Part shown: piece after piece, positions 1,877 to 48,617 of the stretch
Numbering within the stretch: position 1 is the first letter of the stretch
How the letters are laid out: each line of letters opens with the position of its first letter
Assembly (NCBI GenBank): GCA_018062305.1
Contig: JAGOSK010000001.1
Span: 19,005 to 83,004, forward strand
From: Minisyncoccota bacterium
Lineage (GTDB): Bacteria; Patescibacteriota; Minisyncoccia; Phycocordibacterales; CAIZLB01
Direction: 5' to 3'
DNA: 64,000 nt
Made by a program: the position numbers and the translations under genes
Notes under the pieces: generated by a model
Seen by the model: only the letters and a program-made list of their open reading frames with translations
Databases searched by the model: none
What the model was told of the DNA's origin: nothing

Positions 1877-3634
1877 CTACTGATATATTTCCTTCCAGGA
1901 ATCAGTTACCCATGAACCCGATGGTCCACTGTTAAATTCTATGTCAGCCAGTCCACTTTCATAGTTTAGTCTTGTAGCACCCACTAAAGACATCTTATAG
2001 GCTACTACCGCTTTGGCAGAAGCACTACCAGTGAATGCTACTTGGCCATTTGGTGCAAGCAAAACCACAGCTCCAGCAGCACCCCCAAGCGATACAGCTG
2101 ATGTACCCGAACACGAAGTTAAACCTCCACAACTACTTGTAGTTACTATCATCATATAGCTCCCAGCGGTACCACTTCCACTTACATTTGCAGCATTACC
2201 TATATTCACTGTTCCATCTACCACTATTACAACAGAATTTGCTCCAACAGAAGAATTCAAAACAAGATCGGTATCCCCTTGAACACTTAGGTTTCCAGTA
2301 ATATACAATGTCCCACTAATAGTCATACGGGCAGCATCAGTTATAGTTAGATTTCCATTGATTTTGAGAGCGCCTGTTGATGTCGCATCAATATTATCCA
2401 AAGTAATGTTTCCAGTATATACACCCCCTGCAGTAGCATCAGCTTTCCATTCGGCAATATTACTTTCTGAAAAAGGAAATGTTGTGGTTGTTGGTGTTGA
2501 AGATGATGTGTTACACACTTTATTGTTACCAGTACCACTTTGACATGAGAGAGTTCCTGAGACAGTTGAATTATTAACTGTATATGCTGTAGCGTTGCCA
2601 TTCACTACCATACCACTGATACTACTCACACCTCCTAGATAGAGCTGAAAAAAAGCATCATTGTTTGCAGAAGCTGCTGTCCAACTACTACCGTTACTAT
2701 ATCTTCCTGTTTTTACAGACCCAGCCGTATACGAGTTTGTGTTACTCACTCCCATGACATAGGTGTTTGTGGTTGAGTTTGAAGAAACATCTACCATAAG
2801 CCAGTATGTTGTACCAGGGACGAGGGCTACATTTGATGTAAAGTTTACAGGAACCCATCCATAAGAAGTTGTTACTTGAGTAGCACTGAGTGTACCTGAC
2901 ATAAGTGTTGTGTTTGTTGGATTTCCACCTGAAGTTGTTGTAATTCTCACAGTCGCATTCGCAGGTGTACCGGTCTTTTTTATATACAACATCACTCGCG
3001 CTACTGGTGTAGTAGTCGATACAGTAAAACTCTGAGCAAAATCTTGAGTTGCATTAGCATTACCAAATGTAGTGTTTACTGCTGGAACTCCAGAACCATT
3101 TGATTGATCTGTTGTCTGAACTGATGCGGTTGATGCAATAGCAGATCCAGTGATAGTAGAAACTCCTGAACCGCTGATATTACCATTTGAGATAACGTTT
3201 CCTGTGATTGTTGGACTTCCAGACATTGTTAGCCCACCATCACCGACTTGTAAACCATAGTTTATAGAAATACCCTCACCCTGACTGAATATACTTTTTG
3301 AAAGTCTTGTAAACGCCCCTGAAATACCCGTTGCAATGACTTGTTTTGCACCGCCGACGTCAGTAATCAAGGCGGTTGACGTTGCATCATTAAAAGATAG
3401 GACTAGCGTACTTGGCAATGTTCGCCCCTGATTTAATCTATATAAAGCCTCTTCATTAAGCACATCTGCTGAAATGTAGCCCTGCTTTGATTGAAGAAAA
3501 TCTGCTGCTGTTCGCACTTGTATAGCAACCGGAGTCGCTATACCTACGAGTACCGTAATTGAAATAGTCAAAAAGAGAAGCAGTGCACCAATTATGACTT
3601 GTCCGTTTTGAGAATTTTTTGATGGAGATTTCAT
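1877..3634 (-). CDS. Large N-terminally membrane-anchored Thr/Ser/Gly/Asn-rich surface protein at the end of the pilus operon; putative pilus-associated or tip protein
   Basis: 585 aa. One N-terminal hydrophobic helix (VIIGALLLFLTISITVLVGIA) is followed by a long low-complexity beta-rich region. The position directly after three pseudopilin genes suggests a pilus-associated role. Confidence 0.55.
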   Translation of the reverse strand: MKSPSKNSQNGQVIIGALLLFLTISITVLVGIATPVAIQVRTAADFLQSKQGYISADVLNEEALYRLNQGRTLPSTLVLSFNDATSTALITDVGGAKQVIATGISGAFTRLSKSIFSQGEGISINYGLQVGDGGLTMSGSPTITGNVISNGNISGSGVSTITGSAIASTASVQTTDQSNGSGVPAVNTTFGNANATQDFAQSFTVSTTTPVARVMLYIKKTGTPANATVRITTTSGGNPTNTTLMSGTLSATQVTTSYGWVPVNFTSNVALVPGTTYWLMVDVSSNSTTNTYVMGVSNTNSYTAGSVKTGRYSNGSSWTAASANNDAFFQLYLGGVSSISGMVVNGNATAYTVNNSTVSGTLSCQSGTGNNKVCNTSSSTPTTTTFPFSESNIAEWKADATAGGVYTGNITLDNIDATSTGALKINGNLTITDAARMTISGTLYITGNLSVQGDTDLVLNSSVGANSVVIVVDGTVNIGNAANVSGSGTAGSYMMIVTTSSCGGLTSCSGTSAVSLGGAAGAVVLLAPNGQVAFTGSASAKAVVAYKMSLVGATRLNYESGLADIEFNSGPSGSWVTDSWKEIYQ

Positions 3635-3688
3635 ATGTATAATTTTTTATGTTTTAAAATCGAAACGGCACTAAAACTACTATTATTG

Positions 3689-4276
3689 CTATGGTCGGAA
3701 ATCATATGATCCGCGTAAAATCGCTGAACCATAAAAGTTTCGTGATGTGATCGCATGTGAACTTGATCCACTAGTGAGTGTAAAATCAACTTTGAGTAGC
3801 ACAGAACTTGTGGCAAATTGCACATTATATAAAGGGTATCTGCTGAAGACCATTGACTCGACTACAACATCAGAATCAGTCAACGGCGAAGTATCCCCAT
3901 CTTCTGTAACCATTGCTCTGCCATTTACCAATGCAAACGTAATGTACGGCGAAGTTGAACTTCCCGCTTCGAGCGTCACACTTCCTGCTGGGACATCAAA
4001 TGATCCAGCGTTGATACCAGGAGATCTTCTTGCTTCACGCATAATTCTATCCATCAAAGTTATGGCTGATCGTTCTATCTTACGAGCACTACTTACAGTT
4101 CTATATGCGTCTGTCAAAATAAGCATTGAGTTTACTATTCCTACAAGTAAAAAAGCGCAGAGGCCGACATATACAAGTAACTCGACCAAAGTAAAACCTT
4201 TCGTGTGAATATTCACGGAACCCCTCACTCGAATATTTTTTTGTTTACTGTTTGTTAATGAATTTTTCATATACAT
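3689..4276 (-). CDS. Type IV pilin-like protein (minor pilin/pseudopilin)
   Basis: Class III signal peptide ...HTKG|FTLVELLVYVGL with Glu at +5 and a hydrophobic N-terminal helix. Confidence 0.7.
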   Translation of the reverse strand: MYMKNSLTNSKQKNIRVRGSVNIHTKGFTLVELLVYVGLCAFLLVGIVNSMLILTDAYRTVSSARKIERSAITLMDRIMREARRSPGINAGSFDVPAGSVTLEAGSSTSPYITFALVNGRAMVTEDGDTSPLTDSDVVVESMVFSRYPLYNVQFATSSVLLKVDFTLTSGSSSHAITSRNFYGSAILRGSYDFRP

Positions 4277-4306
4277 TTTATTTGTGTGTGCGTCTTATGC
4301 TAGGTC

Positions 4307-4825
4307 TTACCTATTATACGTATTATACAAATACATGATTATTGATTTTGAAGTTGTAGCTACTCCGTCGTACCAACTTACTGTCACCGTCGCTTTTCTA
4401 GTACCCGTATCAAGAGTTCCACCAGTATTCACAATATCGTAACTCGTCGCATCTCTATTTACCGCTGACAATACAAACGTCCTATCAAACTGATCATCAA
4501 TAAGGTCACGAGTCGTCGTAGCTTTCCACCCATAGTTTGCAACACTATAGTCCCAGTACAATGTATAGGTAGTTCCGTTCACGAGCGGGTTAATATTTGA
4601 AGCCCAGCTAACATCTCTCATAAAACGTAACGCCTCGGCGCCTTCATCAAGCAACATCCCAGCTTGAACTTTTGCAGTGTTTCGTATAGCCATAGAAGTA
4701 AGCCCACTATACACGCCCATGATAGCAACGACTGAAGTCATAATGATGGCAGACGCAATCAAAACCTCCACAATACTCACTCCCCGATTTTTGATATCTT
4801 TATTCATAGTTGAAAAGATTTTCAC
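4307..4825 (-). CDS. Type IV pilin-like protein (minor pilin/pseudopilin)
   Basis: MNKDIKNRG|VSIVEVLIASAIIM prepilin motif with Glu at +5. The likely start is the internal Met at about 4807. Confidence 0.7.
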   Translation of the reverse strand: MKIFSTMNKDIKNRGVSIVEVLIASAIIMTSVVAIMGVYSGLTSMAIRNTAKVQAGMLLDEGAEALRFMRDVSWASNINPLVNGTTYTLYWDYSVANYGWKATTTRDLIDDQFDRTFVLSAVNRDATSYDIVNTGGTLDTGTRKATVTVSWYDGVATTSKSIIMYLYNTYNR

Positions 4826-4845
4826 AGATGTAATTGTACACCGAA

Positions 4846-5331
4846 CTACTGTGTTTCAACTAGACCAGTTTTGTACAAGATGACTGTAGTAGATGCATTT
4901 GTATTTGTTTTTAATCTAAATTTAATCGTACCTGTTGCATTCGATTTGCCTGTAATCTTTTCGAATGAAACACTTTGGCTATTTCCCGTAAGATTGATGG
5001 ATGAAATTTCTACTTTAGGTGAAAAAGTAAACGTAGTATTTGTTGGCGAACTCGTACTGTATGTTGCCCCTTGGTATAGCACCACTGATGAGGAAGCGAA
5101 CCTAACACTAAACTGTGCGTTTTCCTTTGCATTTACCGTTTGCAGACGTGCTTTCTCGACGAGAGCAATGGCGTAGTTTACATCCTTTTCTAATGACTGA
5201 TTTTCTGAAACACTAAAAAATGTAGTCAATGAGATCGCCCCTAAAATCATAGCAATACTTATAACAATGATGAGTTCTAGGAGGCTAAAACCTTTGCATT
5301 GAATAAATCTGTCGGAGTTAGATACGTTCAT
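4846..5331 (-). CDS. Type IV pilin-like protein (GspH/FimT-like pseudopilin)
   Basis: Leader ...QCKG|FSLLELIIVISIAMILGAI, the canonical prepilin peptidase site and N-terminal helix. Confidence 0.75.
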   Translation of the reverse strand: MNVSNSDRFIQCKGFSLLELIIVISIAMILGAISLTTFFSVSENQSLEKDVNYAIALVEKARLQTVNAKENAQFSVRFASSSVVLYQGATYSTSSPTNTTFTFSPKVEISSINLTGNSQSVSFEKITGKSNATGTIKFRLKTNTNASTTVILYKTGLVETQ

Positions 5332-5343
5332 AATGTGCCAATA

Positions 5344-6555
5344 TTATACATTATTCATAATCGAATAAATCGGCTTGATCATCGAAATAGCAAAGAAACC
5401 TACAGATGCACCAATAAATACCATGAGCACAGGCTCAATAATAGTCGAGAGGTCTTTTGTCTTTTGTTCGACTTCATTTTCATAAAATGTTGCAACTCCA
5501 GCAAGCATTGGTGCCATTCGTCCAGTTTCTTCCCCTACACTCATCATTTCACCTACAAACAGCGGAAAGAGTTTTTCTTCTTTAACAAAAACTGTTGATA
5601 GTGGTTCTCCTTTTTCTATAATTGACTGACTGTGTTGCATTACCTCTTTATAGTATGAATTTTGAAGCACATCACTTGTTATTTTCACAGCGAGCAAGAG
5701 GTCTACACCAGATGTAAGTAGTGATGAAAGGGTTCGAGCCATTTGTGCAGAGTTACCTTCTTTTACGATAGTGCCGATTACAGGCAGATGCAGTGATATA
5801 AAATCAAATATTCGTGAGCCAATCTTTGTTTTGCCAGCCATAAGTAGACCTATAACAGTAGCAACAAATCCCCCGAGTGTAATAATATAATGTGCAGAAA
5901 CAAAATCACTTATAGCAATAATGACTTTAGTAGAGGTTGGTAGAGGCACTTTCAATTCTTTAAATGTATTAGTTAGACCTGGCACCACATAAATCATCAT
6001 CAAAATTGCTATCGTAATCATCACAAATATAATAATGGATGGATACATCATGGCACCCTTAATCTTTTTAGTGAGCATGTAGCTTTTTTCCATCTGAGTT
6101 CCAACCTGTCGCAGTGTCTCTGCCAAGTTTCCACCCTCTTCCCCTACTTTTACCATTGCCACAAATAGGGGTGGAAATATTTTGGGATACAGCATGAGTG
6201 CTTCGTGAAAGCTTTTTCCTGATGAAATTGCATCATTCAAACCTTTGTATGCACTTTTTAGTTTGATTCCCTTCGTCTGTCTTTCCATTACACTAATAGC
6301 TCGAGAAAGCGACAGTCCAGCTTCAAGCATATTTCCCAAGTTTCGGGCAAAAATAATCTTGTCCATTATCTTTATACGTTCTAAAAATGTGATATTTGTA
6401 TTGATGCTCAATTTCCTTCCACTCTGTTCTTTTACGGTTACAAGCGTGTCCCCTGTTTTTTTAAATTCATTATAAAAATCAGCCTTGTTTTGTGACTCAA
6501 GGTTTCCTGTATATTTTTGTCCATCTTTATTTATAGCTGTGTATGAAAATTTCAT
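5344..6555 (-). CDS. pilC: Type IV pilus assembly platform protein PilC/GspF
   Basis: 403 aa polytopic protein with the duplicated GspF domains typical of PilC. Confidence 0.9.
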   Translation of the reverse strand: MKFSYTAINKDGQKYTGNLESQNKADFYNEFKKTGDTLVTVKEQSGRKLSINTNITFLERIKIMDKIIFARNLGNMLEAGLSLSRAISVMERQTKGIKLKSAYKGLNDAISSGKSFHEALMLYPKIFPPLFVAMVKVGEEGGNLAETLRQVGTQMEKSYMLTKKIKGAMMYPSIIIFVMITIAILMMIYVVPGLTNTFKELKVPLPTSTKVIIAISDFVSAHYIITLGGFVATVIGLLMAGKTKIGSRIFDFISLHLPVIGTIVKEGNSAQMARTLSSLLTSGVDLLLAVKITSDVLQNSYYKEVMQHSQSIIEKGEPLSTVFVKEEKLFPLFVGEMMSVGEETGRMAPMLAGVATFYENEVEQKTKDLSTIIEPVLMVFIGASVGFFAISMIKPIYSIMNNV

Positions 6556-6665
6556 ATTTTTTTGATGGCGATCTTATGCGTCGAAAGTTTCGAAAAATTT
6601 CAGCGTGTGTATCATGTATCTAAAGTGTATACTTTGGATACATGATACACAGCGTTTCCAGCTTC

Positions 6666-8441
6666 CTATTCCGAAACTACTCGCAGGATTTCCTCAACAC
6701 TAGTCAAACCTTGTACCGCTTTAAAAATCCCATCTTCGATCATGGTCATCATCCCCTCTTTTCGAGCTTGTATTTCTATAGCATCACTCGTGGCATCTTT
6801 CATAACCAAATCTTTGATAGTCGGCGAAAACCGGAGCACTTCGTGAATACCAACTCGTCCATGATATCCATCGTCTGTTTCAGAAGTTTCCTTTGGCTTA
6901 TAAAAAGGGATCTTTGACCAATCATCTTTTGGGCCGACTATTTTTTCTTCTTTGAGAATTCGAAGTACATTTTCCATATCTATTTTTTTGGAAATAGAAG
7001 CAAGCTCCTCTTTAGTGAGAATATATTTTTCTTTTGATTCGGCCAGTCTTCGCACAAGTCTTTGAGCGATAATAATTTTCAACGTCGAAACAAGAAGGAA
7101 CGGCTCACATTTCATATCAATAAGTCGTGGAATAGCGCCCGCTGCTGAATTGGTGTGTAGTGTTGAAAATACCAAGTGACCAGTAAGTGCGGCATTGATA
7201 CCGAGTGACGCTGTCTCATTATCTCGGATTTCTCCCACCATAATGATGTCTGGGTCTTGTCGAAGAAGCGAACGAAGACCAGAAGCAAACGTTAGCCCAA
7301 TTTCAGATTTAATCTGAGTTTGATTTACGCGCTTCATTTGATATTCCACAGGATCTTCTACGGTTGAAATATTCACATCGGGCTGATTCACAATGTCCAA
7401 AAGTGTATACAAAGTCGTCGTCTTTCCAGAACCAGTAGGCCCTGTTGTGAGCACGAGGCCCTCTGACATTTTTGTAGCTTCGTGCAGTATTTCGAGGTCG
7501 CGTCCGTGAAAACCAAGTTTTTCCAAAGTAAATCCAGAAACCGTTTCCCGCAAGAGTCGCATCACAATCTTTTCACCAAAGTACGTTGGCAAAATAGAAA
7601 CACGAAATGAAATCTTTTCACCATTGAGTTCAATACGAAATCGTCCGTCTTGTGGCAGACGTTTTTCATCAAGTTTCAAGTTAGACAACACTTTGAGACG
7701 CGCGATGATACTTGCGCCAGCAGATTTTGGAAGGATCATGGCATCGTGCAACATACCGTCGATTCGATATCGTACTATCACTTCAAACTCTGTTTGCTCA
7801 ATATGAATATCAGAAGCATCTTGAATCGCAGCATGTTTCAAAAGTGTGTCGACAATACGCACCACCGGTAGATCTTCAGCAAGTTTTTTGAGATCGTCAC
7901 CTGACACTTCCCCATTCTCACCATTCTCTGTTGTTACTTTGAGTGATGCAGCTTCTTGCTGAATAATATCTCCAAAATCTGCTTGCAAACTTTTTTGATA
8001 TTGAATAAGCGCAGACTTCATCGACTCAGTATTTGTAAGTCGTGGAAGAATTTTGAAACCAGTTTTCTTTTTTATAAAATCAATAGCACCGAGATCATCA
8101 GTATCGAGCATCGCCACTTCGAGTGATGCCTCTTCCCCTTGATTATTTCCCATCACTTTATTGAACGCAATAATATTATGATTTCGAGCAATAGGTTCTG
8201 GAATAAGTGAAAGAACTGCAAACTCAAGTTTTTGTTTTTTGAGATCCACGAAGGGAATACCAAGTATGTGAGCCTGCATTCTTCGGAAATCATCTTCTGA
8301 AATCTTACCTTCCGAAACCAACACATCACCAATATCTTTTTTAGTTTTCTCTGCTTCTTTTTCAGCTGACTGAAGATCAGCAAGAGAAAGGAGCTTGGCA
8401 TCAAGAATATATTTTTTTAATTGGTCCGGTGCAATGTACAT
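6666..8441 (-). CDS. pilB: Type IV pilus assembly ATPase PilB/GspE
   Basis: Walker A TGPTGSGKTTTLY, Asp box, Walker B DPDIIMVGEIRD and the His box STLHTNSAAG. An N-terminal GspE_N-like domain is present. Confidence 0.9.
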   Translation of the reverse strand: MYIAPDQLKKYILDAKLLSLADLQSAEKEAEKTKKDIGDVLVSEGKISEDDFRRMQAHILGIPFVDLKKQKLEFAVLSLIPEPIARNHNIIAFNKVMGNNQGEEASLEVAMLDTDDLGAIDFIKKKTGFKILPRLTNTESMKSALIQYQKSLQADFGDIIQQEAASLKVTTENGENGEVSGDDLKKLAEDLPVVRIVDTLLKHAAIQDASDIHIEQTEFEVIVRYRIDGMLHDAMILPKSAGASIIARLKVLSNLKLDEKRLPQDGRFRIELNGEKISFRVSILPTYFGEKIVMRLLRETVSGFTLEKLGFHGRDLEILHEATKMSEGLVLTTGPTGSGKTTTLYTLLDIVNQPDVNISTVEDPVEYQMKRVNQTQIKSEIGLTFASGLRSLLRQDPDIIMVGEIRDNETASLGINAALTGHLVFSTLHTNSAAGAIPRLIDMKCEPFLLVSTLKIIIAQRLVRRLAESKEKYILTKEELASISKKIDMENVLRILKEEKIVGPKDDWSKIPFYKPKETSETDDGYHGRVGIHEVLRFSPTIKDLVMKDATSDAIEIQARKEGMMTMIEDGIFKAVQGLTSVEEILRVVSE

Positions 8442-16440: not shown

Positions 16441-16530
16441 GGTTGATTTGCTACACTTTTTACGAACAGTAGCCCTGTTCGGTTTTTGATTCTGTTGACA
16501 AGATGGTTTACTCCACCTCCGTAGCCAATG

Positions 16531-16983
16531 CTACAGTTCGATCAAGACTCGGTCGTCGCTTACCCATACGTAAACTTTTGGATCAGTGAGAGGTCTGCCG
16601 ACTTTGGGGTCGACATCAACAACCATGCAATCCATAACGTTTATGTCGCCTTTGGGAACCGCCCTTCCATGTCTTTCAAGCTTCCAGCTGTCATCCAGAG
16701 CTCCGCGCTTTGGGAGCCATAGAAAACCGAGGAAGTCCTGACGATCAAAGAGGGGTGATTCGCCGCGTGCAATAAGTGAGTAGCATACAAGAGCTCCACT
16801 TTTGCTTTCACGGGGTTCCCAATGGGCTGGAGCGGTGAAGTTCCCATCAGGCCGATCAAACGACCTGATGTATTCCACCACTTCAGGGCCAGCAAGCTTC
16901 ACGCCTTCCAATTGCTCGCCAACCGTCTTACCAGCGACCAGCTTGAGAAGTCCAACACGATTCAGATCAATGTTTGTGCTCAT
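16531..16983 (-). CDS. Hypothetical protein in a GC-rich islet
   Basis: 150-aa ORF at about 50% GC with a terminator downstream. No recognisable family. Confidence 0.45.
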   Translation of the reverse strand: MSTNIDLNRVGLLKLVAGKTVGEQLEGVKLAGPEVVEYIRSFDRPDGNFTAPAHWEPRESKSGALVCYSLIARGESPLFDRQDFLGFLWLPKRGALDDSWKLERHGRAVPKGDINVMDCMVVDVDPKVGRPLTDPKVYVWVSDDRVLIEL

Positions 16984-17040
16984 AGTAAAGATTCCTCACC
17001 TTGGCATACAGTGTCTCCCGAATGGGAGCTTATCAGTTGC

Positions 17041-17091
17041 GTTGGTTGTGGAAATAGAGAAATGGTTAACGTCCCTATTTCCACAACCAAC
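17041..17091. repeat. Perfect 17-bp inverted repeat (hairpin) with a 17-nt loop
   Basis: GTTGGTTGTGGAAATAG ... CTATTTCCACAACCAAC read directly. It is followed by ATTTTATTTT on the plus strand. Confidence 0.5.
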
Positions 17092-17198
17092 ATTTTATTT
17101 TAAAGATCTTCTGTTTCGTCCTTTTGGACTCATCAGTCGGAATTACATTCCGAGACAGAGAGATTTTACGGGTAATCTCGAACCGAGTGGGTTTACCA

Positions 17199-17471
17199 CT
17201 ATTTTGAGGTTTTAGTCTCAAATCCAATTCTCTGCATCCATCGCAGAAGTGCCAAAACCTTGACACGTCCAGCGAAACCTAAGTCGCGGTCTGAGATTCG
17301 GTAAATTTTTCCCGTATCATCGATTTGAAGCTGCCTATCACAAATTGAATCAATGAAATACATACCCTCTTCGCCCAGTCCTTCACGGAGAACTCTTTCA
17401 TAGACGCAACGGCCGCCTTCTGGTATATCCAATCCTTCGATTTCGGAAATGATTTCTGCGATTTTTTTCAT
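17199..17471 (-). CDS. Hypothetical small protein in a GC-rich islet
   Basis: 90-aa ORF. No recognisable motif. Confidence 0.4.
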   Translation of the reverse strand: MKKIAEIISEIEGLDIPEGGRCVYERVLREGLGEEGMYFIDSICDRQLQIDDTGKIYRISDRDLGFAGRVKVLALLRWMQRIGFETKTSK

Positions 17472-17706
17472 AGTATTTGATAGTTGAGTTTGGTTTGTGA
17501 TCCCGCAATCCGCATGACGATATGTCAGCAGGTCAATTGTGGTCTCACTTCCAGACTCAACCCCATACTCTCGATGGCTCGATTTTGAATGAACTCAATC
17601 TGGCAATAGTATAGTGACTATGTCAATACTAGTCCAATCTTAATCAAATATTGTTATTTATTATGATATGTATATCTTTATTTGAAGCCATATTTCTACT
17701 ATTTAT

Positions 17707-17759: not shown

Positions 17760-18524
17760 ATGAATGAAATCATCGCCTCTTTAGGTCATATAGGTCTTTC
17801 TGATAAGGAAGCTAAGATATATCTGGCTCTCCTTAAGTTTGGTGAGGCTTCTGTTAGTGATATTGCCGATGAAGCGGGTATAAAGCGCCCTACTGCATAC
17901 ATCATTTTGGATGAGCTGCGTAAAAAAGGCCTCGTGATGAAAATTCCACATGCCAAAAAAGCCCTTTTCCAAGCAAAGACACCAGACGAACTCTATGAGC
18001 AGACAGTCTCCAATATCAATCGCTTTGAGAAAGTTCTACCAAAGCTTCGATCAATGAACCCATCTAAGAAAAATATTAAAACTCTTTATTATGAAGGACT
18101 GGACGGTATGAAAGAAGCCCTATACTACAGACTTGATGATCTCAAAGGTACAACCGATGATGGCTTCTGGGCAAAGGACGATGGCACAGTAACTAAGCCA
18201 GTGATGGACCTCTTCCACAAATGGAATGCTTCTCGGGAGAAAAACAACATACTTATAAGTGGTGTTACACCAGAACATGATTCCACCTTGGAGTTTTTTG
18301 AGAAATATAAGCAATCGCATCAAATCATGAGAGTTCCCCAGACAGACTACAACTCTGATATCTCGATTGAAGTGACAGACAAGTTTGTTAGAATCATCGA
18401 TCCGCACGAATTGAAAGCAATCATCATTGAAAACGATCGTCTTTCAGAAGCACTGAAACAAATATTTAGTTTAGCTAAACGAAACTTTATTAAAAAAGAA
18501 AAAGTAGAAGATCTTTTAGGGTAA
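17760..18524 (+). CDS. TrmB-family transcriptional regulator
   Basis: N-terminal winged helix IGLSDKEAKIYLALLKFGEASVSDIADEAGIKRPTAYIILDELRKKGLV. Confidence 0.75.
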   Translation: MNEIIASLGHIGLSDKEAKIYLALLKFGEASVSDIADEAGIKRPTAYIILDELRKKGLVMKIPHAKKALFQAKTPDELYEQTVSNINRFEKVLPKLRSMNPSKKNIKTLYYEGLDGMKEALYYRLDDLKGTTDDGFWAKDDGTVTKPVMDLFHKWNASREKNNILISGVTPEHDSTLEFFEKYKQSHQIMRVPQTDYNSDISIEVTDKFVRIIDPHELKAIIIENDRLSEALKQIFSLAKRNFIKKEKVEDLLG

Positions 18525-18680
18525 GAGAATCGGTCACGCGTTAAAATTGCGGCACAATTTTCCGCGCGACCCCGCCTCCCTCGTTGCGCTTCGCCGATTA
18601 ACCCTTTATGAGATGCGTAAAAGTACCGACTCACTGCGCAACTTCAGTCCGGCTTTCGATTCTCGCTTATCCAATAGCAA
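18524..18680 (+). repeat. Copy A of a conserved structured ~155-nt element (candidate ncRNA) adjacent to tRNA-Gly
   Basis: Two conserved blocks are shared with copy B at 21606..21760: a block of about 75 nt beginning GAGAATCGGTCACGCG and a block of about 44 nt ending CCGGCTTTCGATTC. It starts on the trmB stop codon and is followed by a terminator. Confidence 0.6.
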
Positions 18681-18691
18681 TAAAAACAAAA

Positions 18692-18719
18692 CACCGCTTA
18701 CGCGGTGCCCTGTTTTTAT
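18692..18719. terminator. Bidirectional intrinsic terminator (CACCGC-TTAC-GCGGTG + T-run)
   Basis: Hairpin with CCCTGTTTTTATT on the plus strand and an A-run on the other side. It separates element A from tRNA-Gly. Confidence 0.65.
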
Positions 18720-18721
18720 TG

Positions 18722-18792
18722 TGCGGGGTAAGAGAATCGAACTCTTGCCAACAGTTTGGAAAACTGTAGTTCTACCATTAAACTAACCCCGC
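18722..18792 (-). tRNA. tRNA-Gly (anticodon UCC); no encoded CCA
   Basis: Cloverleaf folded by hand: acceptor GCGGGGT/ACCCCGC, anticodon arm ACAGT-TTTCCAA-ACTGT, T arm AAGAG-TTCGATT-CTCTT. Confidence 0.8.
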
Positions 18793-20557: not shown

Positions 20558-20593
20558 AGCTTAATATACTTATATAATTTGGCTTAATCTTTG

Positions 20594-20666
20594 TCGGAGC
20601 GCCGGGATTCGAACCCGGAGTCACCTGTTCCCAAAACAGGAATGTTAACCGTTACACCACGCTCCG
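20594..20666 (-). tRNA. tRNA-Pro (anticodon UGG); no encoded CCA
   Basis: C1-G72 acceptor CGGAGCG/CGCTCCG, anticodon arm CCTGT-TTTGGGA-ACAGG, T arm CCGGG-TTCGAAT-CCCGG. Confidence 0.85.
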
Positions 20667-20705: not shown

Positions 20706-21233
20706 TCATAAATATGGAAAATATTTCACTTTTATGGCTTTTATATCAGTTTTTGTACTCGCTGAGGGACATTTTTCTACCCCTTCGAGGTAAGGCTCAG
20801 AATTGTTATGCTCATTCCCATGTAGGTAAACCACAACTCCCCCAATCTCAATATCCATTTCAGACACACTAAGATCAGGACGCAGATTCAAACCAAGATC
20901 CAAAATTCCCCTATCGAGTCCAATACCCATTTCTAGCCTATTCATCAATTCCTCACGAAGCCTATATAGTTTCCGTAGCTTAGTGGAAGAGAGGTTGTCC
21001 TCAGGAAGAAAGATATCGGATTCTGCCAAAGAGCTAAAGGACGTTGCAAAATAGGTAGTCTTAACCTCTATAATATGGATCACGCCGTTCTTGTACGTAA
21101 GTATGTCTATCTCCCCTTGCTTGAGTCGTAGGTTCTTGGCTAATACCCTGTGACCTTTTAAAGTCAGAAAATGGGCAGCGACTCTCTCTCCATACGTACC
21201 TATGTCCTTTTTGTTTTTGAATATGTATTCCAT
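20706..21233 (-). CDS. YraN/UPF0102-family predicted endonuclease with a C-terminal extension
   Basis: N-terminal GERVAAHFLTLKGHRVLAKNLR...GEIDILTY...IHIIEVKT, a PD-(D/E)xK-like YraN signature. Confidence 0.65.
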   Translation of the reverse strand: MEYIFKNKKDIGTYGERVAAHFLTLKGHRVLAKNLRLKQGEIDILTYKNGVIHIIEVKTTYFATSFSSLAESDIFLPEDNLSSTKLRKLYRLREELMNRLEMGIGLDRGILDLGLNLRPDLSVSEMDIEIGGVVVYLHGNEHNNSEPYLEGVEKCPSASTKTDIKAIKVKYFPYL

Positions 21234-21565: not shown

Positions 21566-21605
21566 GTTTTGTCGATATCTGTACACAGTGGGTGGGGTAG
21601 TAAGG

Positions 21606-21760
21606 GGAGAGAATCGGTCACGCGTTAAAATTGCTCCACAATTTTCCGCGCGACCCCGCCTCCCTCGTTGCACTTCGCCGATTGGGACACCGCAATAAAA
21701 TACAAAAGTACCGGCTCACTGCGCAACTTCAGTCCGGCTTTCGATTCCTACTTGTCCCAC
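21606..21760 (+). repeat. Copy B of the conserved structured ~155-nt element (candidate ncRNA) adjacent to tRNA-Gly
   Basis: Block 1 and block 2 are near-identical to copy A, with different intervening segments. It is followed by a perfect hairpin terminator. Confidence 0.6.
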
Positions 21761-21769
21761 TGTAAATAC

Positions 21770-21806
21770 AAAAGAGCGCATGTAATATGCGCTCTTTTGT
21801 ATTTAT
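21770..21806. terminator. Bidirectional intrinsic terminator (AAAAGAGCGCAT-gtaata-ATGCGCTCTTTT)
   Basis: Perfect 12-bp stem flanked by A and T runs. Confidence 0.7.
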
Positions 21807-21807
21807 G

Positions 21808-21878
21808 TGCGGGGTAAGAGAATCGAACTCTTGTCCCGTCCTTGGCAAGGACGTATTCTACCACTAAACCAACCCCGC
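21808..21878 (-). tRNA. tRNA-Gly (anticodon GCC); no encoded CCA
   Basis: Same body as the UCC isoacceptor. Anticodon arm CGTCC-TTGCCAA-GGACG. Confidence 0.9.
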
Positions 21879-21901
21879 ATTTATATTATCCACTAACCGT
21901 G

Positions 21902-21973
21902 TGCACCCACCAGGATTCGAACCTAGAATAACGGTTCCGAAGACCGTTGTGATATCCATTTCACCATAGGTGC
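21902..21973 (-). tRNA. tRNA-Arg (anticodon UCG, tentative); no encoded CCA
   Basis: Acceptor GCACCTA/TGGGTGC, anticodon arm ACGGT-CTTCGGA-ACCGT, T arm CTAGG-TTCGAAT-CCTGG. Confidence 0.7.
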
Positions 21974-25180: not shown

Positions 25181-26242
25181 TTACTTATTTCCACCACTCT
25201 GTCTACTATGAAAAGCCTTGTGGATCTCCTTGAGGTGCTTATCGGTGACATGTGTATAGATTTGGGTGGTAGAGATGTTGGCATGACCGAGAAGTGCCTG
25301 TACAGATCGGAGGTCAGCACCGTTTTGTAGTAGGTCTGTAGCAAAACTGTGTCGGATAACGTGCGGAGTTACTTTTTTAGAAATTCCCGCCTTAATTGCA
25401 TAGTATTTTACCAACCGCTCTATAGTCCTAGGGGTCAAATCAAACAATCTAGAGCTCGTCAAACTCTTATTTTTAGCCAGATATTCTTTTATACTTTCTT
25501 TAGCCATGTCAGTTAAAAACACAACACGCACTTTTTCACCTTTTCCTCTCACTGAAAACTCATTTTTCGACATATCGAGGTCGCGAGGTAGGGAACACAA
25601 CTCAGAAACACGAAGACCTGTTGAGTAGAAAAGCTCTAAAATGGCCTTATCTCTAAGTTTCTTTTGCTCATCCTTCTCTTGGCTTGGACCGCTAAGGAAA
25701 CGCTCGAGCTCTTCAGAACTGATCAAATCAAGTGATCTCTCAGGGACTTTGGCAAGCTCTATATTGTCTGCGGGAAGTGATTTTATAGAACGTCTAGTCA
25801 GGTATTTGAGAAAAGACCGTAAGGCAATCAGATAGTAATTTTGCGTTCTTTTCTTGAGAGTTTCACCATTTATGCTTGTTTTCGACTTTCGACTATGGCT
25901 TATTTCCGAGGTATTTGAAGTTATTCCTAGAGGTTTTCTATTTAGCCAAAGGCGATATTCTCGAAGTAGATCAGGGTTTAATTCTTCAGGATAGACCTCC
26001 GGAACACCCTTATTTTTTGATACAAAGTCTAGAAAAGTGCTCAAATACCTGTCGTAGTTTTCAACAGTCTTAAGCGAACGGCCCTTCTCGATTTCGATAT
26101 ATTCGAGAAAGTGACGCTTGAGCACAAGGAGAGTAAGATTTAAAGTAGAAGAAGGTGCTGAGGTTGATGCCGATGGTGTTGAAGTAGGAAGTTTGTTTTG
26201 CGACATATCGATATAAGTATACCAGACCTCTTGAACAAGCAA
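25181..26242 (-). CDS. Tyrosine recombinase, XerC/XerD family
   Basis: C-terminal HVIRHSFATDLL...LLGHANISTTQIYTHV catalytic region (R-H-R-Y). The N-terminal ~40 aa are low complexity and the start may be internal. Confidence 0.8.
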   Translation of the reverse strand: MLVQEVWYTYIDMSQNKLPTSTPSASTSAPSSTLNLTLLVLKRHFLEYIEIEKGRSLKTVENYDRYLSTFLDFVSKNKGVPEVYPEELNPDLLREYRLWLNRKPLGITSNTSEISHSRKSKTSINGETLKKRTQNYYLIALRSFLKYLTRRSIKSLPADNIELAKVPERSLDLISSEELERFLSGPSQEKDEQKKLRDKAILELFYSTGLRVSELCSLPRDLDMSKNEFSVRGKGEKVRVVFLTDMAKESIKEYLAKNKSLTSSRLFDLTPRTIERLVKYYAIKAGISKKVTPHVIRHSFATDLLQNGADLRSVQALLGHANISTTQIYTHVTDKHLKEIHKAFHSRQSGGNK

Positions 26243-45787: not shown

Positions 45788-47152
45788 GTGAAGCACAAAC
45801 TAATCCATAAAATAGCTTATATATTTTTTATATTGGTTTGCTTTTTAAATTCATTCCTGACTGTTTTTGCAGCAGGGGCTTATTCCGATCTTGAAGCAGG
45901 GACATATACAGCAACTATCGAAAACTTTGCAAACAGCGGAAAAACGCAAACCTTCCAGATGGTTCTTATTCCTGATATAAACGGATATCTATATTTAGAT
46001 CGTGAAAAAACCAACATTCCAATCAAAGACTATTCGGGGGATAAGGATTACTTACCCGACGAACTTACCTATAAAAACGCAAACGGAAAAGAGGTTACAT
46101 TTGATCTCAGATCCACATCAAGAATCGATAATACGAGTGGGGCTATAAAAGTTGATGGTAAAGGAAATCTCACTTCACCAACAATTACTCAGACCGAAAC
46201 AAAACCAGTGGTGACTCTCGGAGCCACCACCCCTCCCCCAAACTCAAACGCTGGCTCATACACATTCCTTGCACCACTACCGTTCTTTGGGGGTCCATCA
46301 ATAAATATTGCAGAGGGAGGACTTGCTGGGTATTTAGATGGATTGTACAAAGCCGGTATTGCTGTAGCTACCGGGTTAGCACTCATTATGATTGTTGCAG
46401 GAGGTCTTGAGTATGCATCAGCTGGTTCTGTAGGAGGGAAAGATGGGGGAAAGAGTAAGATTAAAAATGCACTCATTGGATTACTACTTGCTTTGACTTC
46501 ATTCATCATATTGCAACAGATTAATCCTGGTCTCATTCGAAATGATTTGGCAGTAGATGCCACCAAGGCAGTAGGGGGTATTACCGGGCAGACGGTGGAT
46601 TTGGTTGATTATACCAACACAACATTAGGAAATCTGTATACACAGGGTATAATTGATGGATCGTTAGGAAACAATCCTGGGTCATTTCCAGGAAGTGGCG
46701 TCTTATCTACATCTGCGGTCGCGGCACGAATAGTGCAATCTGCTAGAGCAAATCTAAATGAATCAACTTGTTTCCCTGTTACAGAATACGGAAGAAGAGG
46801 CTGTGGCTATGCTTTTGGAAAGATAATGAGCGACGCTGGTGTTAATTTTACTAACCTAAACTCAAGTTCGGTCTTATCTACATCAAACATATATAGTGTT
46901 TTAGCAACCGACCAAAGGTTTACACTTGTTTCTATAAACGATACACGAAACGCCCTTCCGGGAGATATTATTATTTCACCAACAACATCTGTGGCAACTG
47001 GTCACGTAGGAATTATTGAACAAGCTGGTGCTGGAAAAATAATATCAAACAGTAGTAATGCTGGTTCAATTCAAGATTATTTTACTGGTCAAAAATGGTT
47101 AAATTATTACGGAGGAAAAGGATTAAAAACTTATATTTTTAGATATCGATAA
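45788..47152 (+). CDS. Secreted protein with a VirB2/pilin-like double-helix segment and a C-terminal CHAP/NlpC-P60-like hydrolase domain
   Basis: Signal peptide. Central segment AGIAVATGLALIMIVAGGLEYASAG...ALIGLLLALTSFIILQQ, two hydrophobic helices split by a charged loop. C-terminus has Cys in RRGCGYAF and His in TGHVGII. Confidence 0.5.
   Translation: MKHKLIHKIAYIFFILVCFLNSFLTVFAAGAYSDLEAGTYTATIENFANSGKTQTFQMVLIPDINGYLYLDREKTNIPIKDYSGDKDYLPDELTYKNANGKEVTFDLRSTSRIDNTSGAIKVDGKGNLTSPTITQTETKPVVTLGATTPPPNSNAGSYTFLAPLPFFGGPSINIAEGGLAGYLDGLYKAGIAVATGLALIMIVAGGLEYASAGSVGGKDGGKSKIKNALIGLLLALTSFIILQQINPGLIRNDLAVDATKAVGGITGQTVDLVDYTNTTLGNLYTQGIIDGSLGNNPGSFPGSGVLSTSAVAARIVQSARANLNESTCFPVTEYGRRGCGYAFGKIMSDAGVNFTNLNSSSVLSTSNIYSVLATDQRFTLVSINDTRNALPGDIIISPTTSVATGHVGIIEQAGAGKIISNSSNAGSIQDYFTGQKWLNYYGGKGLKTYIFRYR
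46225..46607. repeat. 383-bp segment 100% identical to 47720..48102 (copy 1)
   Basis: Compared base by base. It encodes the pilin-like segment in both genes. Confidence 0.9.
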
Positions 47153-47174: not shown

Positions 47175-48617
47175 ATGTATATACGAAATCTACTTTTAGT
47201 TTTTATACTAGTATTTAATTTTTTATTGCCTTCTTTTACGTATTCTGCAGTAGCAGTAGGAAATCTGGTTAAATTGCAAAGTGCGAACGAGGTGTCTGAG
47301 GTTTCTATTGAAAAAAGCTACTACACCCCCGGGGCAGACCAGAGCAAAGCTACAAACTTCCAATTTATATATCAAAAGACTGCAGCTGATAACTATCAAC
47401 TTTCACAGGTCTTCGTACAAGATAGTAAGACTGGAGCGTTTGTAGACTCGACGTCTAAGTTCACAGAACAAATTCAGCGACAACCTCAATTTGAAGTTGT
47501 ATCAAAACAGGATATGTATCAGTACAAAATAGGTGCTCGAGATTTTCAGGAGGAAATTGCCCAAAAACAACTAAACACAACAGCATCTGTTAATAGTAAT
47601 ACAAACCCCGAGTTAGGTTTTAGGGATGGAACGAACCCAGATGATATTTTTAGAACCACAATGAATAATCTTCCGGGTAATACAGTAGGAAACCCTGTAG
47701 CAGTAGTACCTTCAACAAGCACCACCCCTCCCCCAAACTCAAACGCTGGCTCATACACATTCCTTGCACCACTACCGTTCTTTGGGGGTCCATCAATAAA
47801 TATTGCAGAGGGAGGACTTGCTGGGTATTTAGATGGATTGTACAAAGCCGGTATTGCTGTAGCTACCGGGTTAGCACTCATTATGATTGTTGCAGGAGGT
47901 CTTGAGTATGCATCAGCTGGTTCTGTAGGAGGGAAAGATGGGGGAAAGAGTAAGATTAAAAATGCACTCATTGGATTACTACTTGCTTTGACTTCATTCA
48001 TCATATTGCAACAGATTAATCCTGGTCTCATTCGAAATGATTTGGCAGTAGATGCCACCAAGGCAGTAGGGGGTATTACCGGGCAGACGGTGGATTTGGT
48101 TGCTGGAGGGGGTACAATAAATCAAATAATCCCTCCGGGACAACCAGGTAGTTATGTCTTAGCAAACAATGAAAACCCTTCAACAGGAACAGTTTTTAGT
48201 AATTATTCAAGTTTAAAACAATTATTAAATAGCCTTCCAAGTGGACCGAGATCTACAGATGGAAGTCTTATTTTTACAAATTATTGGAACGGAGATACAA
48301 ATACAAATCAACAGCGAGGAAACAACTGCAACCTTTTGGTATCTGGCTCAGTAGCACTCTCACCAGACCTTATATCTAGATATAATCCAAAAAAAGGGGC
48401 AGCAGTATATGTAAATGGTTTATTGGTTGGCTACTTTGACGACACAACAGGTGCAACAACACTGGGATATGTTGGAGGAACTCTTATTAGAAATACTATA
48501 GATATATATGATCCCAACCGAACTCTTGGATCAGTTCTTAAAAAAATGCCTCCAAATAGTTGGTATTTAGTATTTGGAACACAAAGAGCTCAAACACCAA
48601 ACCCTTGTCCTCGATAA
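47175..48617 (+). CDS. Secreted protein with the same VirB2/pilin-like segment and unrelated N- and C-terminal domains
   Basis: Signal peptide and the identical 127-aa cassette. The C-terminal domain is of unknown function. Confidence 0.5.
   Translation: MYIRNLLLVFILVFNFLLPSFTYSAVAVGNLVKLQSANEVSEVSIEKSYYTPGADQSKATNFQFIYQKTAADNYQLSQVFVQDSKTGAFVDSTSKFTEQIQRQPQFEVVSKQDMYQYKIGARDFQEEIAQKQLNTTASVNSNTNPELGFRDGTNPDDIFRTTMNNLPGNTVGNPVAVVPSTSTTPPPNSNAGSYTFLAPLPFFGGPSINIAEGGLAGYLDGLYKAGIAVATGLALIMIVAGGLEYASAGSVGGKDGGKSKIKNALIGLLLALTSFIILQQINPGLIRNDLAVDATKAVGGITGQTVDLVAGGGTINQIIPPGQPGSYVLANNENPSTGTVFSNYSSLKQLLNSLPSGPRSTDGSLIFTNYWNGDTNTNQQRGNNCNLLVSGSVALSPDLISRYNPKKGAAVYVNGLLVGYFDDTTGATTLGYVGGTLIRNTIDIYDPNRTLGSVLKKMPPNSWYLVFGTQRAQTPNPCPR
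47720..48102. repeat. 383-bp segment 100% identical to 46225..46607 (copy 2)
   Basis: Compared base by base. Confidence 0.9.

Follow-up and report, generated by a model that had tools for sequence, protein, structure and literature searches.

A 64,000-nucleotide stretch of the genome of a Minisyncoccota bacterium (assembly GCA_018062305.1, contig JAGOSK010000001.1, positions 19,005 to 83,004; hereafter the window) carries two copies of a conserved block of about 155 nucleotides (nt), each lying beside a gene for glycine transfer RNA (tRNA-Gly). A preliminary description, made from the sequence of this window, took the block for a functional RNA or protein-binding site and could match it to no RNA family. 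The question raised by this locus is therefore what the block is, which strand of it is meaningful, and why it lies next to tRNA genes. The analysis reported here identifies it as a member of a phylum-wide family of small non-coding elements associated with the tRNA and transfer-messenger RNA (tmRNA) genes of Patescibacteria, which fold into a three-way junction on the tRNA-sense strand and terminate in a duplicate of the tRNA 3′ end. The reading tentatively favoured is that of a selfish insertion element directed at the T-loop.

Within the 64 kb, a covariance model of the family (R1, described below) gave exactly two matches, both on the minus strand, which is also the strand of the adjacent tRNA genes (Table 1). 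Copy A scored 79.8 bits (E = 3e-18) and copy B 72.4 bits (E = 2.5e-16), far beyond chance. The two near-identical blocks reported previously were found where they had been placed, with 93% identity in the first (18517–18599 versus 21601–21683) and 91% in the second (18619–18672 versus 21704–21757); overall identity was 82%, and the spacer, the apical hairpin loop and the hairpin on the tRNA side could not be aligned between copies. Four minus-strand tRNA genes lie near the copies, and the two for tRNA-Gly, with anticodons UCC and GCC, each adjoin one copy and share an identical 3′-terminal 28 nt (repeat family D8), the association with tRNA-Gly proving meaningful. The outer 14 nt of copy A, which form the 3′ strand of its closing stem, repeat the tRNA-Gly 3′ end exactly, as had been noticed; the same match had been ascribed to copy B, where the longest unbroken identity is only 9 nt and, by eye, about 13 of 15 positions agree if one base is skipped. 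Copy A overlaps the stop codon of a TrmB-family gene (18522–18524), also as described before, and homologues of the encoded protein were found in Patescibacteria only. The variable-loop sequences of the two copies, considered as possible guides, had no further match anywhere in the window.

Relatives were collected with a search pattern derived from the shared left end of the element and applied to one genome per species, which returned at least 119 loci. Loci are labelled with L and a number, and the family counts given below rest on the pattern matches listed. The pattern was designed from four copies and fixes the base of one hairpin (P3), including a G·U pair, the invariance of which is thus partly due to construction; this base and its G·U pair were already common to all four design copies. 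Because the element itself supplied the pattern, occupancy is overestimated and part of the observed conservation is enforced. Model R1 was built from 69 non-redundant members (alignment A2) and recognised at least 143 copies in at least 98 Patescibacteria loci, their length being about 90–180 nt. The sources are labelled as Saccharibacteria, Nomura-, Kaiser-, Taylor-, Wolfe-, Yonath-, Yanofsky-, Lloyd-, Moranii-, Berkel- and Peregrinibacteria, Peribacteria, Paceibacterota and others. None of the GC-rich loci from outside the Patescibacteria on which R1 was run passed it, and the two pattern matches on viral contigs failed it as well, so that both groups are regarded as chance matches.

The element is apparently uncatalogued, in agreement with the preliminary description. 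Rfam 15, applied to the whole window at the gathering threshold, returned only tRNAs and one hammerhead, with nothing on the element, and permissive scans of copy A and of the minimal member L053 gave nothing credible; in these two members no self-cleaving ribozyme family (hammerhead, twister, pistol, hatchet and others) matched the element even at E up to 10. There was likewise no match to any Y RNA model contained in Rfam 15, and no Ro/Rsr gene recurs nearby. ARAGORN and the Rfam tRNA model called the neighbouring genes only, the element sharing with tRNA and tmRNA its 3′-end sequence alone. A limited search of the literature, including literal sequence strings, found no description of it.

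The fold is a three-way junction of helices P1, P2 and P3. P1, the closing stem, comprises GAAUC/GAUUC together with pairs between the 5′ arm and the copied T-stem 3′ strand, and is connected to P2 by AAA, whereas P2 and P3 are connected by GG. P2 begins with a G-N-C/G-N′-C base, beyond which come tandem G·A pairs and then a hairpin that varies, the middle pair of the base covarying through four Watson-Crick types (CG 29, AU 19, GC 17, UA 3). P3 has the form GGUCG(C/A)G…C.CGUGACC, with one G·U pair, a bulged A and a variable tip. In alignment A2, 93% of the cells of P3 (pairs 122–136/163–178) and 70% of those of P1 (columns 12–26/179–193) are paired, with eight and ten pairs, respectively, changed on both sides. 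Across the 69 sequences, paired cells amount to 83.6%, compared with 67.2% after shuffling, a level reached in none of 500 shuffles, and the covariation score is 0.441, compared with 0.149 in shuffled alignments and at most 0.144 with slid partners. Unguided RNAalifold recovered P2 and P3, with compensatory change in 13 of 19 pairs. All the pairings named in the preliminary description are real, covarying helices of a structure found throughout the family: GAGAAUCG with CGAUUCUC corresponds to P1, GGUCACGCG with CGCGCGACC and the AAAAUUG/CAAUUUU stem to P3, and GUUGCGC/GCGCAAC to an extension of P2 that belongs to a long subtype also present in L001 and L024. Its view that the element is conserved and structured, and not decay debris, is borne out by the covariance search and the RNAalifold fold it had proposed, relatives having kept the pairings.

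Approximately one quarter of the members carry an extra 5′ arm complementary to the copied acceptor strand, together with a hairpin whose loop is CUGC or CUUC, giving a cloverleaf-like outline in which the junction replaces the T-loop. The longest complementary run of this arm is at least 7 nt in 26% of members, with a mean of 5.9 compared with 5.2 in shuffled sequences (p = 0.0008); an acceptor-like stem common to the whole family was rejected, the feature being restricted to the subset. The 5′ arm may be either a copy of the tRNA 5′ strands or a complement of the 3′ end; the sites that could distinguish these, those with a G·U pair or mismatch in the tRNA, gave counts of 8 against 4, too few to favour one of them clearly. 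Two small hairpins recur family-wide besides the junction. One contains tandem G·A pairs (GAGC-GAA/GACG-GCGAG, UGAGC…GCGAA) and occurs at the tips of P2 and P3 and in some tRNA trailers (e.g., L016, L108, L120, L097 and L114); the other is optional, lies 5′ of P1 and has the conserved tip (G)AA-CUGC-UU(C).

The strand that folds is that of the tRNA. Mean fold energy was -50.8 kcal/mol for the tRNA-sense strand and -41.5 kcal/mol for the antisense strand, the former giving the more stable fold in 68 of 69 members. The G·U pair of P3 on the tRNA strand becomes an A·C mismatch on the opposite strand; with this pattern-fixed pair excluded, G·U outnumbered A·C by 16 to 4 in P2 and P3 and by 98 to 61 in P1, and where the P2 helices of the two window copies differ, the minus strand likewise has G·U and the plus strand A·C. 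Energies, pairing bias and substitutions together indicate that the folded strand in the window is the minus strand. The element is consequently not a plus-strand transcript of about 190 nt ending at a terminator, nor does it read as antisense to the tRNA 3′ end, its sequence there being that of the 3′ end itself. A plus-strand small RNA of this kind, with a 5′ end complementary to the tRNA-Gly 3′ end and an anti-Shine-Dalgarno stretch, was what the preliminary description had in mind, and a terminator-like site on the plus strand after copy A, as well as the co-variation of the complementarity with the tRNA 3′ end between genomes, would suit it. This reading is nevertheless very improbable, given that it requires the less stable fold and the A·C mismatches, that the start of copy A would fall inside the TrmB-family stop codon, and that the CCUCCC stretch, which on the folded strand reads GGGAGG within an internal loop of the long P2, is not conserved in the family. 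The strong terminator said to end each copy is a hairpin between tRNA and element, scored as a terminator for copy A only, the terminator scan having made no call on the hairpin beside copy B.

The relationship with the host gene is equally regular. On the tRNA strand, an intact tRNA is followed by a short trailer, often with a terminator-like hairpin, then by an arm, GAAUCG, the three-way junction, CGAUUC and a second tRNA 3′ end extending from T-loop C56 to the discriminator; the arm before GAAUCG complements the T-stem 3′ strand of the tRNA and sometimes also the acceptor 3′ strand. Among the matches listed, 106 of 143 copies immediately follow a tRNA or tmRNA gene in the same orientation, the gap having a median of 39.5 nt and an interquartile range of 30–62 nt. 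The hosts include 17 tRNA species (Gly 20, Arg 20, Glu 12, Pro 8, Leu 7, and others) and tmRNA (4), and 34 sources have two or three copies, with one to three copies per 8-kb locus. Elements occupy 103 of the 194 tRNA and tmRNA genes in these element-selected, and hence upwardly biased, loci. The distal duplicate begins at T-loop C56 and ends -1 to +2 nt from the tRNA end in 34 of 49 intact cases, the upstream tRNA being intact, and the two repeats are usually 125–200 nt apart. The outer end of the element follows the neighbouring tRNA, reading GGGTAAGAGAATCG in the window and GGATAAGGGAATCG in L001 and L005, each the reverse complement of the tRNA-Gly(UCC) 3′ end of its own genome; the distal repeat of the latter two loci reads CGAUUCCCUUAUCC, as in their own tRNA-Gly(UCC). 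Of 134 cases, 59 had a terminator-like hairpin with a U run between tRNA and element and 29 had one behind the element, against a background of 8.5%. A few loci have longer duplications, of 52–75 nt including the trailer, or one-and-a-half tandem units. The phylum-wide spread, the many tRNA and tmRNA hosts and the co-variation of the end with the upstream tRNA were missed by the preliminary description, which drew on one window. Two explanations of the duplicate were considered and rejected: an intron in the T-loop of a working tRNA, which is contradicted by the completeness of the upstream tRNA and by the loop of only 5 nt that joined flanks would form, and a retro-copy of mature tRNA, because the distal copy is not consistently followed by CCA.

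Syntenic contigs of relatives were compared at both window sites. L001, whose TrmB-family protein is 94% identical, has copy A beside tRNA-Gly(UCC) and lacks copy B, the site of which appears, by eye, to be a deletion remnant. L005 (TrmB-family protein 88% identical) has a strongly different interior at the copy A site, and L003 (69%) lacks copy A in a rearranged context and, at the site orthologous to that of copy B, carries an element of a different subtype. Orthologous identity is 68% between copy B of the window and that of L003, and 77% between copy A of the window and that of L001; L001 and L005 are 78% and 92% identical in the flanks and 63% in the interior. Different subtypes at orthologous sites suggest replacement or conversion between sites having the same tRNA 3′ end, and the near-identical blocks of the window, beside tRNA-Gly genes with identical 3′ ends, fit spread or conversion between sites that share a target. 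Many loci have decayed distal repeats, and orphan copies with no tRNA nearby, as well as tandem, nested and inverted copies (inverted cores), were also present. Separately, degenerate 5′ parts of tRNA-Glu are joined straight to the junction in L112 (1207–1359), L118 (276–440) and the Kaiserbacteria locus L058 (minus strand, about 2385–2760); in L058 the pseudo-tRNA has several small GC-rich hairpin insertions in the D-loop and anticodon-loop regions, and the whole unit of about 260 nt is tandemly duplicated.

No protein accompanies the element regularly. Clustering of 804 reading frames located within 3 kb of elements revealed no recurrent recombinase, reverse transcriptase or transposase, the recurring neighbours being housekeeping genes syntenic with tRNAs (e.g., LepA, SmpB, YraN, FtsH and MurF). 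Two loci enclose cargo. In L079, an insert of 5.2 kb (1937–7179) separates tRNA-Ala(UGC) from a reduced junction without P2. A repeat of 20 nt of the tRNA 3′ end marks its limits, and a gene for a large serine recombinase lies at its tRNA side; this insert could be an autonomous relative or an unrelated island in the same site. In L080, two copies enclose 2.4 kb.

An integration-like layout in a unit of only 120–200 nt, without a recombinase and with a one-strand fold inside, favours a selfish, non-autonomous insertion element that is specific for the T-loop, re-establishes the 3′ end of the tRNA and relies on the folding of a single strand. We lean towards this reading tentatively, as having nearly an even chance of being correct. 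From the observed structure, strand, position, duplication, multi-copy state and lack of a linked protein, we infer a recombination mechanism, and with it transcription and any function, along the following lines. The unit formed by tRNA 3′ end, trailer, arm and junction would recombine with a tRNA gene within the shared stretch of about 18–21 nt; the 3′-end copy brought by the element would then complete the tRNA, and the original 3′ end would be displaced to the far side, beside the junction. As the tRNA stays functional, insertion would be tolerated and high occupancy possible. The junction may work as a folded single strand of tRNA polarity, either as RNA made with or after the tRNA or as transient single-stranded DNA, with P1 rebuilding as a duplex the segment of the tRNA gene that has recombined. 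In genes co-oriented with replication the sense strand is the lagging-strand template, which would suit a mechanism based on single-stranded DNA. A recombinase or processing enzyme would act in trans, none being encoded with the element, and the expected circle or excised junction would read …CNCGUGAC|CGAUUC-tRNA 3′ end-trailer…. Decayed, orphan, tandem, nested and inverted copies, losses, subtype swaps and occasional cargo are typical of mobile or selfish behaviour.

Several observations weigh against such an element. To our knowledge, a unit of 120–200 bp is far below the size of any known integrative element, and no enzyme was found for it. No clean pair of filled and empty alleles was found, the sole "empty" site examined (that of copy B in L001) resembling a deletion remnant. 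The core sequence is kept across very distant classes, and the RNA-type motifs (tandem G·A, A-rich junction, bulged A and G·U) would also fit an RNA that benefits the host; the roughly one half of members without a terminator-like site after the tRNA suit a co-transcribed RNA gene. The arm has to match each tRNA, which the proposed mechanism does not account for. The duplications of 52–75 nt point to homologous recombination or tandem duplication, and not to one precise site-specific reaction. Finally, the loci were gathered with an element-derived pattern, which inflates occupancy. A bolder version, possible but doubtful, is a protein-less "T-loop homing" element, in which a junction of about 70 nt, as RNA or single-stranded DNA, would direct or catalyse insertion beside the T-loop in whichever tRNA or tmRNA gene and copy the 3′ end of that gene, or a hijacker of tRNA processing that would constitute a new class of tRNA-derived RNA.

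The serious rival is a tRNA-like non-coding RNA transcribed with or just after the tRNA and kept for the benefit of the host, an account that we hold to be credible yet on balance rather improbable. P1 and, in the subset, the acceptor-like stem would imitate the acceptor/T minihelix and be trimmed by RNase P, an RNase Z-like enzyme and the CCA-adding enzyme, while the junction at the place of the T-loop would bind a conserved partner and the match to the tRNA would be kept by selection or local gene conversion. Conservation of core sequence and structure over many candidate phyla and classes of Patescibacteria agrees with this, as do the tRNA-sense fold in 68 of 69 members, the 75 of 134 members without a terminator-like site between tRNA and element, and the identity with the tRNA that ends at its own 3′ end; so do the subset with an acceptor-like 5′ arm and a hairpin in the place of the D and anticodon arms, and the tandem G·A pairs, AAA junction, bulged A and G·U typical of RNA. 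A beneficial RNA would hardly be expected, however, to be patchy among close relatives, to be replaced by other subtypes at the same site, to vary in copy number and host tRNA between genomes, or to exist in many copies with decayed ends, orphaned or rearranged; moreover, a terminator-like hairpin lies ahead of the element in 44% of cases and no promoter is evident.

Prophage or genomic-island integration (e.g., by the phage P4 integrase) also classically leaves direct repeats of a tRNA or tmRNA 3′ end, and the repeats could accordingly be attL and attR of T-loop integrases, with the conserved block as a leftover island end. The island of 5.2 kb in L079, which lies between tRNA-Ala and junction and encodes a large serine recombinase, and the two copies around 2.4 kb in L080 are what such a history would leave. 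A plain integration scar is unlikely all the same: more than 100 cargo-free copies share one compact layout, compensatory changes and strand-specific G·U pairs are unexpected for a protein-binding arm in duplex DNA, no integrase is enriched nearby, and viral contigs yielded only the two pattern matches that fail the model. Of the two fallbacks named in the preliminary description, a miniature mobile element or the duplication of a tRNA locus, the general idea is close to the selfish element favoured here, although the defining properties of miniature inverted-repeat transposable elements (MITEs) were not found: only GAAUCG/CGAUUC is fixed, the outer arms follow the tRNA, the duplication is at least 18 nt and no transposase was found.

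Comparison with known systems places the element near several of them. Phage P4-type integrases use a short attachment-site core at the tRNA 3′ end, which the layout of the element resembles, and integrative elements of tRNA and tmRNA genes and cis-mobilisable elements (CIMEs) have in common with it the insertion in the 3′ part, a repeat of about 18–21 nt from T-loop to gene end, a restored tRNA and the use of tmRNA as a host. The element differs from these in its size of only 120–200 nt, in nearly all copies being without integrase or cargo between the repeats (L079 and L080 excepted), in its interior with a conserved, covarying and strand-specific fold, and in its 17 host tRNA species. In the integron attC site and in attP of CTXphi, the latter recombined by host XerCD, one strand folds and its stem rebuilds the recombining duplex, and no recombinase of their own is needed. 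The element likewise has a strand-specific fold in which P1 pairs the tRNA 3′-end copy with its complement; the likeness concerns the proposed mechanism only, the target being the tRNA T-loop and not attI or dif, and any role of IntI or Xer would rest on analogy. Furthermore, the element conserves a junction inside the stem, whereas attC conserves mainly stem features. MITEs are comparably small, non-coding, multi-copy and prone to folding, with inverted ends (here GAAUCG…CGAUUC and the T-stem arms), but the outer inverted repeats of the element change with the target tRNA, its duplication of at least 18 nt runs to the tRNA end, and no autonomous partner was found.

The bacterial Y RNA YrlA, mascRNA, viral tRNA-like structures and tRNA 3′ trailer RNAs such as 3′ETS-leuZ lie next to or after a tRNA, or have parts that imitate the acceptor and T stems. 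The element differs from them because its T-loop is replaced, not imitated, its end is copied from whichever tRNA is its neighbour, and no Rfam family matches it. With GGUC/GACC and then a G·U pair, the P3 base presumably resembles the Ro-binding helix of Y RNAs. Archaeal non-canonical tRNA introns, split tRNAs and the group I introns of Patescibacteria tRNAs, which occupy position 35/36 in the anticodon loop (PMC13011429), are alike in being insertions in a tRNA-shaped unit, and the lineage is rich in tRNA introns; the few element loci in which a tRNA 5′ part is directly joined to the junction recall an intron or split tRNA. In contrast to introns, the upstream tRNA is complete without splicing, the junction is far too small for group I, and no intron family matches. 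The element fails defining features of integrative elements, MITEs, folded single-strand sites and tRNA-like RNAs, which are nearest to it in concept.

The genomes of Patescibacteria are minimal, yet about half of the tRNA and tmRNA genes in the sampled, element-selected loci carry the element. Being so common and conserved, it would be either a very successful parasite of tRNA genes or a part of tRNA biology so far unrecognised in a major bacterial branch. For annotation, it is absent from Rfam and spurious open reading frames (ORFs) are called over it, so that its inclusion would bring a direct gain. It would be a non-coding element, open to testing, with the universal T-loop as its target and a host gene that is kept intact, bearing on the preference of integrases and other systems for tRNA genes and on possible protein-light insertion. 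If T-loop homing or the hijacking of tRNA processing were true, a new kind of mobile or selfish nucleic acid would be present in a large share of the tRNA genes of the phylum. Saccharibacteria have been brought into co-culture, which makes tests feasible if a cultivated strain carries the element.

Table 1. Positions of the two element copies, their parts and the neighbouring tRNA genes in the window.
Feature	Position	Strand	Basis or remark
Copy A, covariance-model extent	18507–18683	-	R1 match; folded part (P1 to P1) 18519–18672; aligns with copy B
Copy A, distal tRNA-Gly 3′-end copy, RNA sense CGAUUCUCUUACCC, T-loop C56 into acceptor strand	18519–18532	-	14-nt exact repeat of adjacent tRNA; 3′ strand of P1
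Copy A, P3 hairpin, RNA GGUCGCGCGG…CGCGUGACC, one G·U pair, variable tip	18532–18571	-	A2 alignment pairs; RNAalifold independently
Copy A, P2 arm, long subtype	18574–18653	-	GCC/GGC base, tandem G·A, GUUGCGC/GCGCAAC helix, UGAG/CGAA module, variable tip
Copy A, AAA junction (18654–18656) and P1 5′ strand (18657–18672, RNA GGAUAAGCGAGAAUCG)	18654–18672	-	Read from sequence
Hairpin between tRNA-Gly(UCC) and copy A, stem-loop 18692–18707, A and T runs at sides	18681–18719		Terminator-like
tRNA-Gly(UCC), host gene of copy A	18721–18792	-	ARAGORN and Rfam tRNA, 72.1 bits
tRNA-Pro	20593–20666	-	
Copy B, covariance-model extent	21589–21768	-	R1 match; folded part about 21604–21761
Copy B, degenerate tRNA 3′-end repeat	21604–21616	-	
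Copy B, P1 5′ strand	21742–21761	-	
Hairpin between tRNA-Gly(GCC) and copy B	21770–21798		Read from sequence; unrelated to copy A hairpin
tRNA-Gly(GCC), host gene of copy B	21807–21878	-	tRNA searches; repeat family D8
tRNA-Arg	21901–21973	-	

Reading frames overlap two of the elements: an ORF of 95 residues in the window (18347–18634, minus strand) overlaps copy A, and a called gene of 97 residues in L003 (11844–12137, plus strand) covers copy B of that locus. Both are probably artefacts of GC-rich structured sequence. Directly downstream of copy B, on the same strand, lies a gene of the YraN/UPF0102 family of NERD-like nucleases (20706–21233, minus strand); genes of this family lie no more than 3 kb from elements in seven loci, most likely as a result of conserved synteny with tRNA clusters. 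A gene for a Xer-like tyrosine recombinase with Phage_integrase and SAM-like N-terminal domains (25181–26242, minus strand) is located 3.4 kb from copy B; nothing links it to the element, its product being the kind of host enzyme that a protein-less element could borrow.

Elsewhere in the window, the hammerhead returned by Rfam is of type III (17108–17161, minus strand) and scored 50.0 bits against a gathering threshold of 48.5. It sits between two small minus-strand ORFs (16531–16983 and 17199–17471), both without a Pfam match, in a stretch (about 16450–17650) with a GC content of 45–54% compared with about 38% around it. This stretch, placed between the genes for HU and the TrmB-family protein, may represent a distinct insert that is mobile or of phage origin. 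A perfect direct repeat of 300 nt (46225–46524 and 47720–48019, spacing 1495 nt) falls inside two consecutive plus-strand genes (45788–47152 and 47175–48617) and suggests a recent tandem paralogue or gene conversion.

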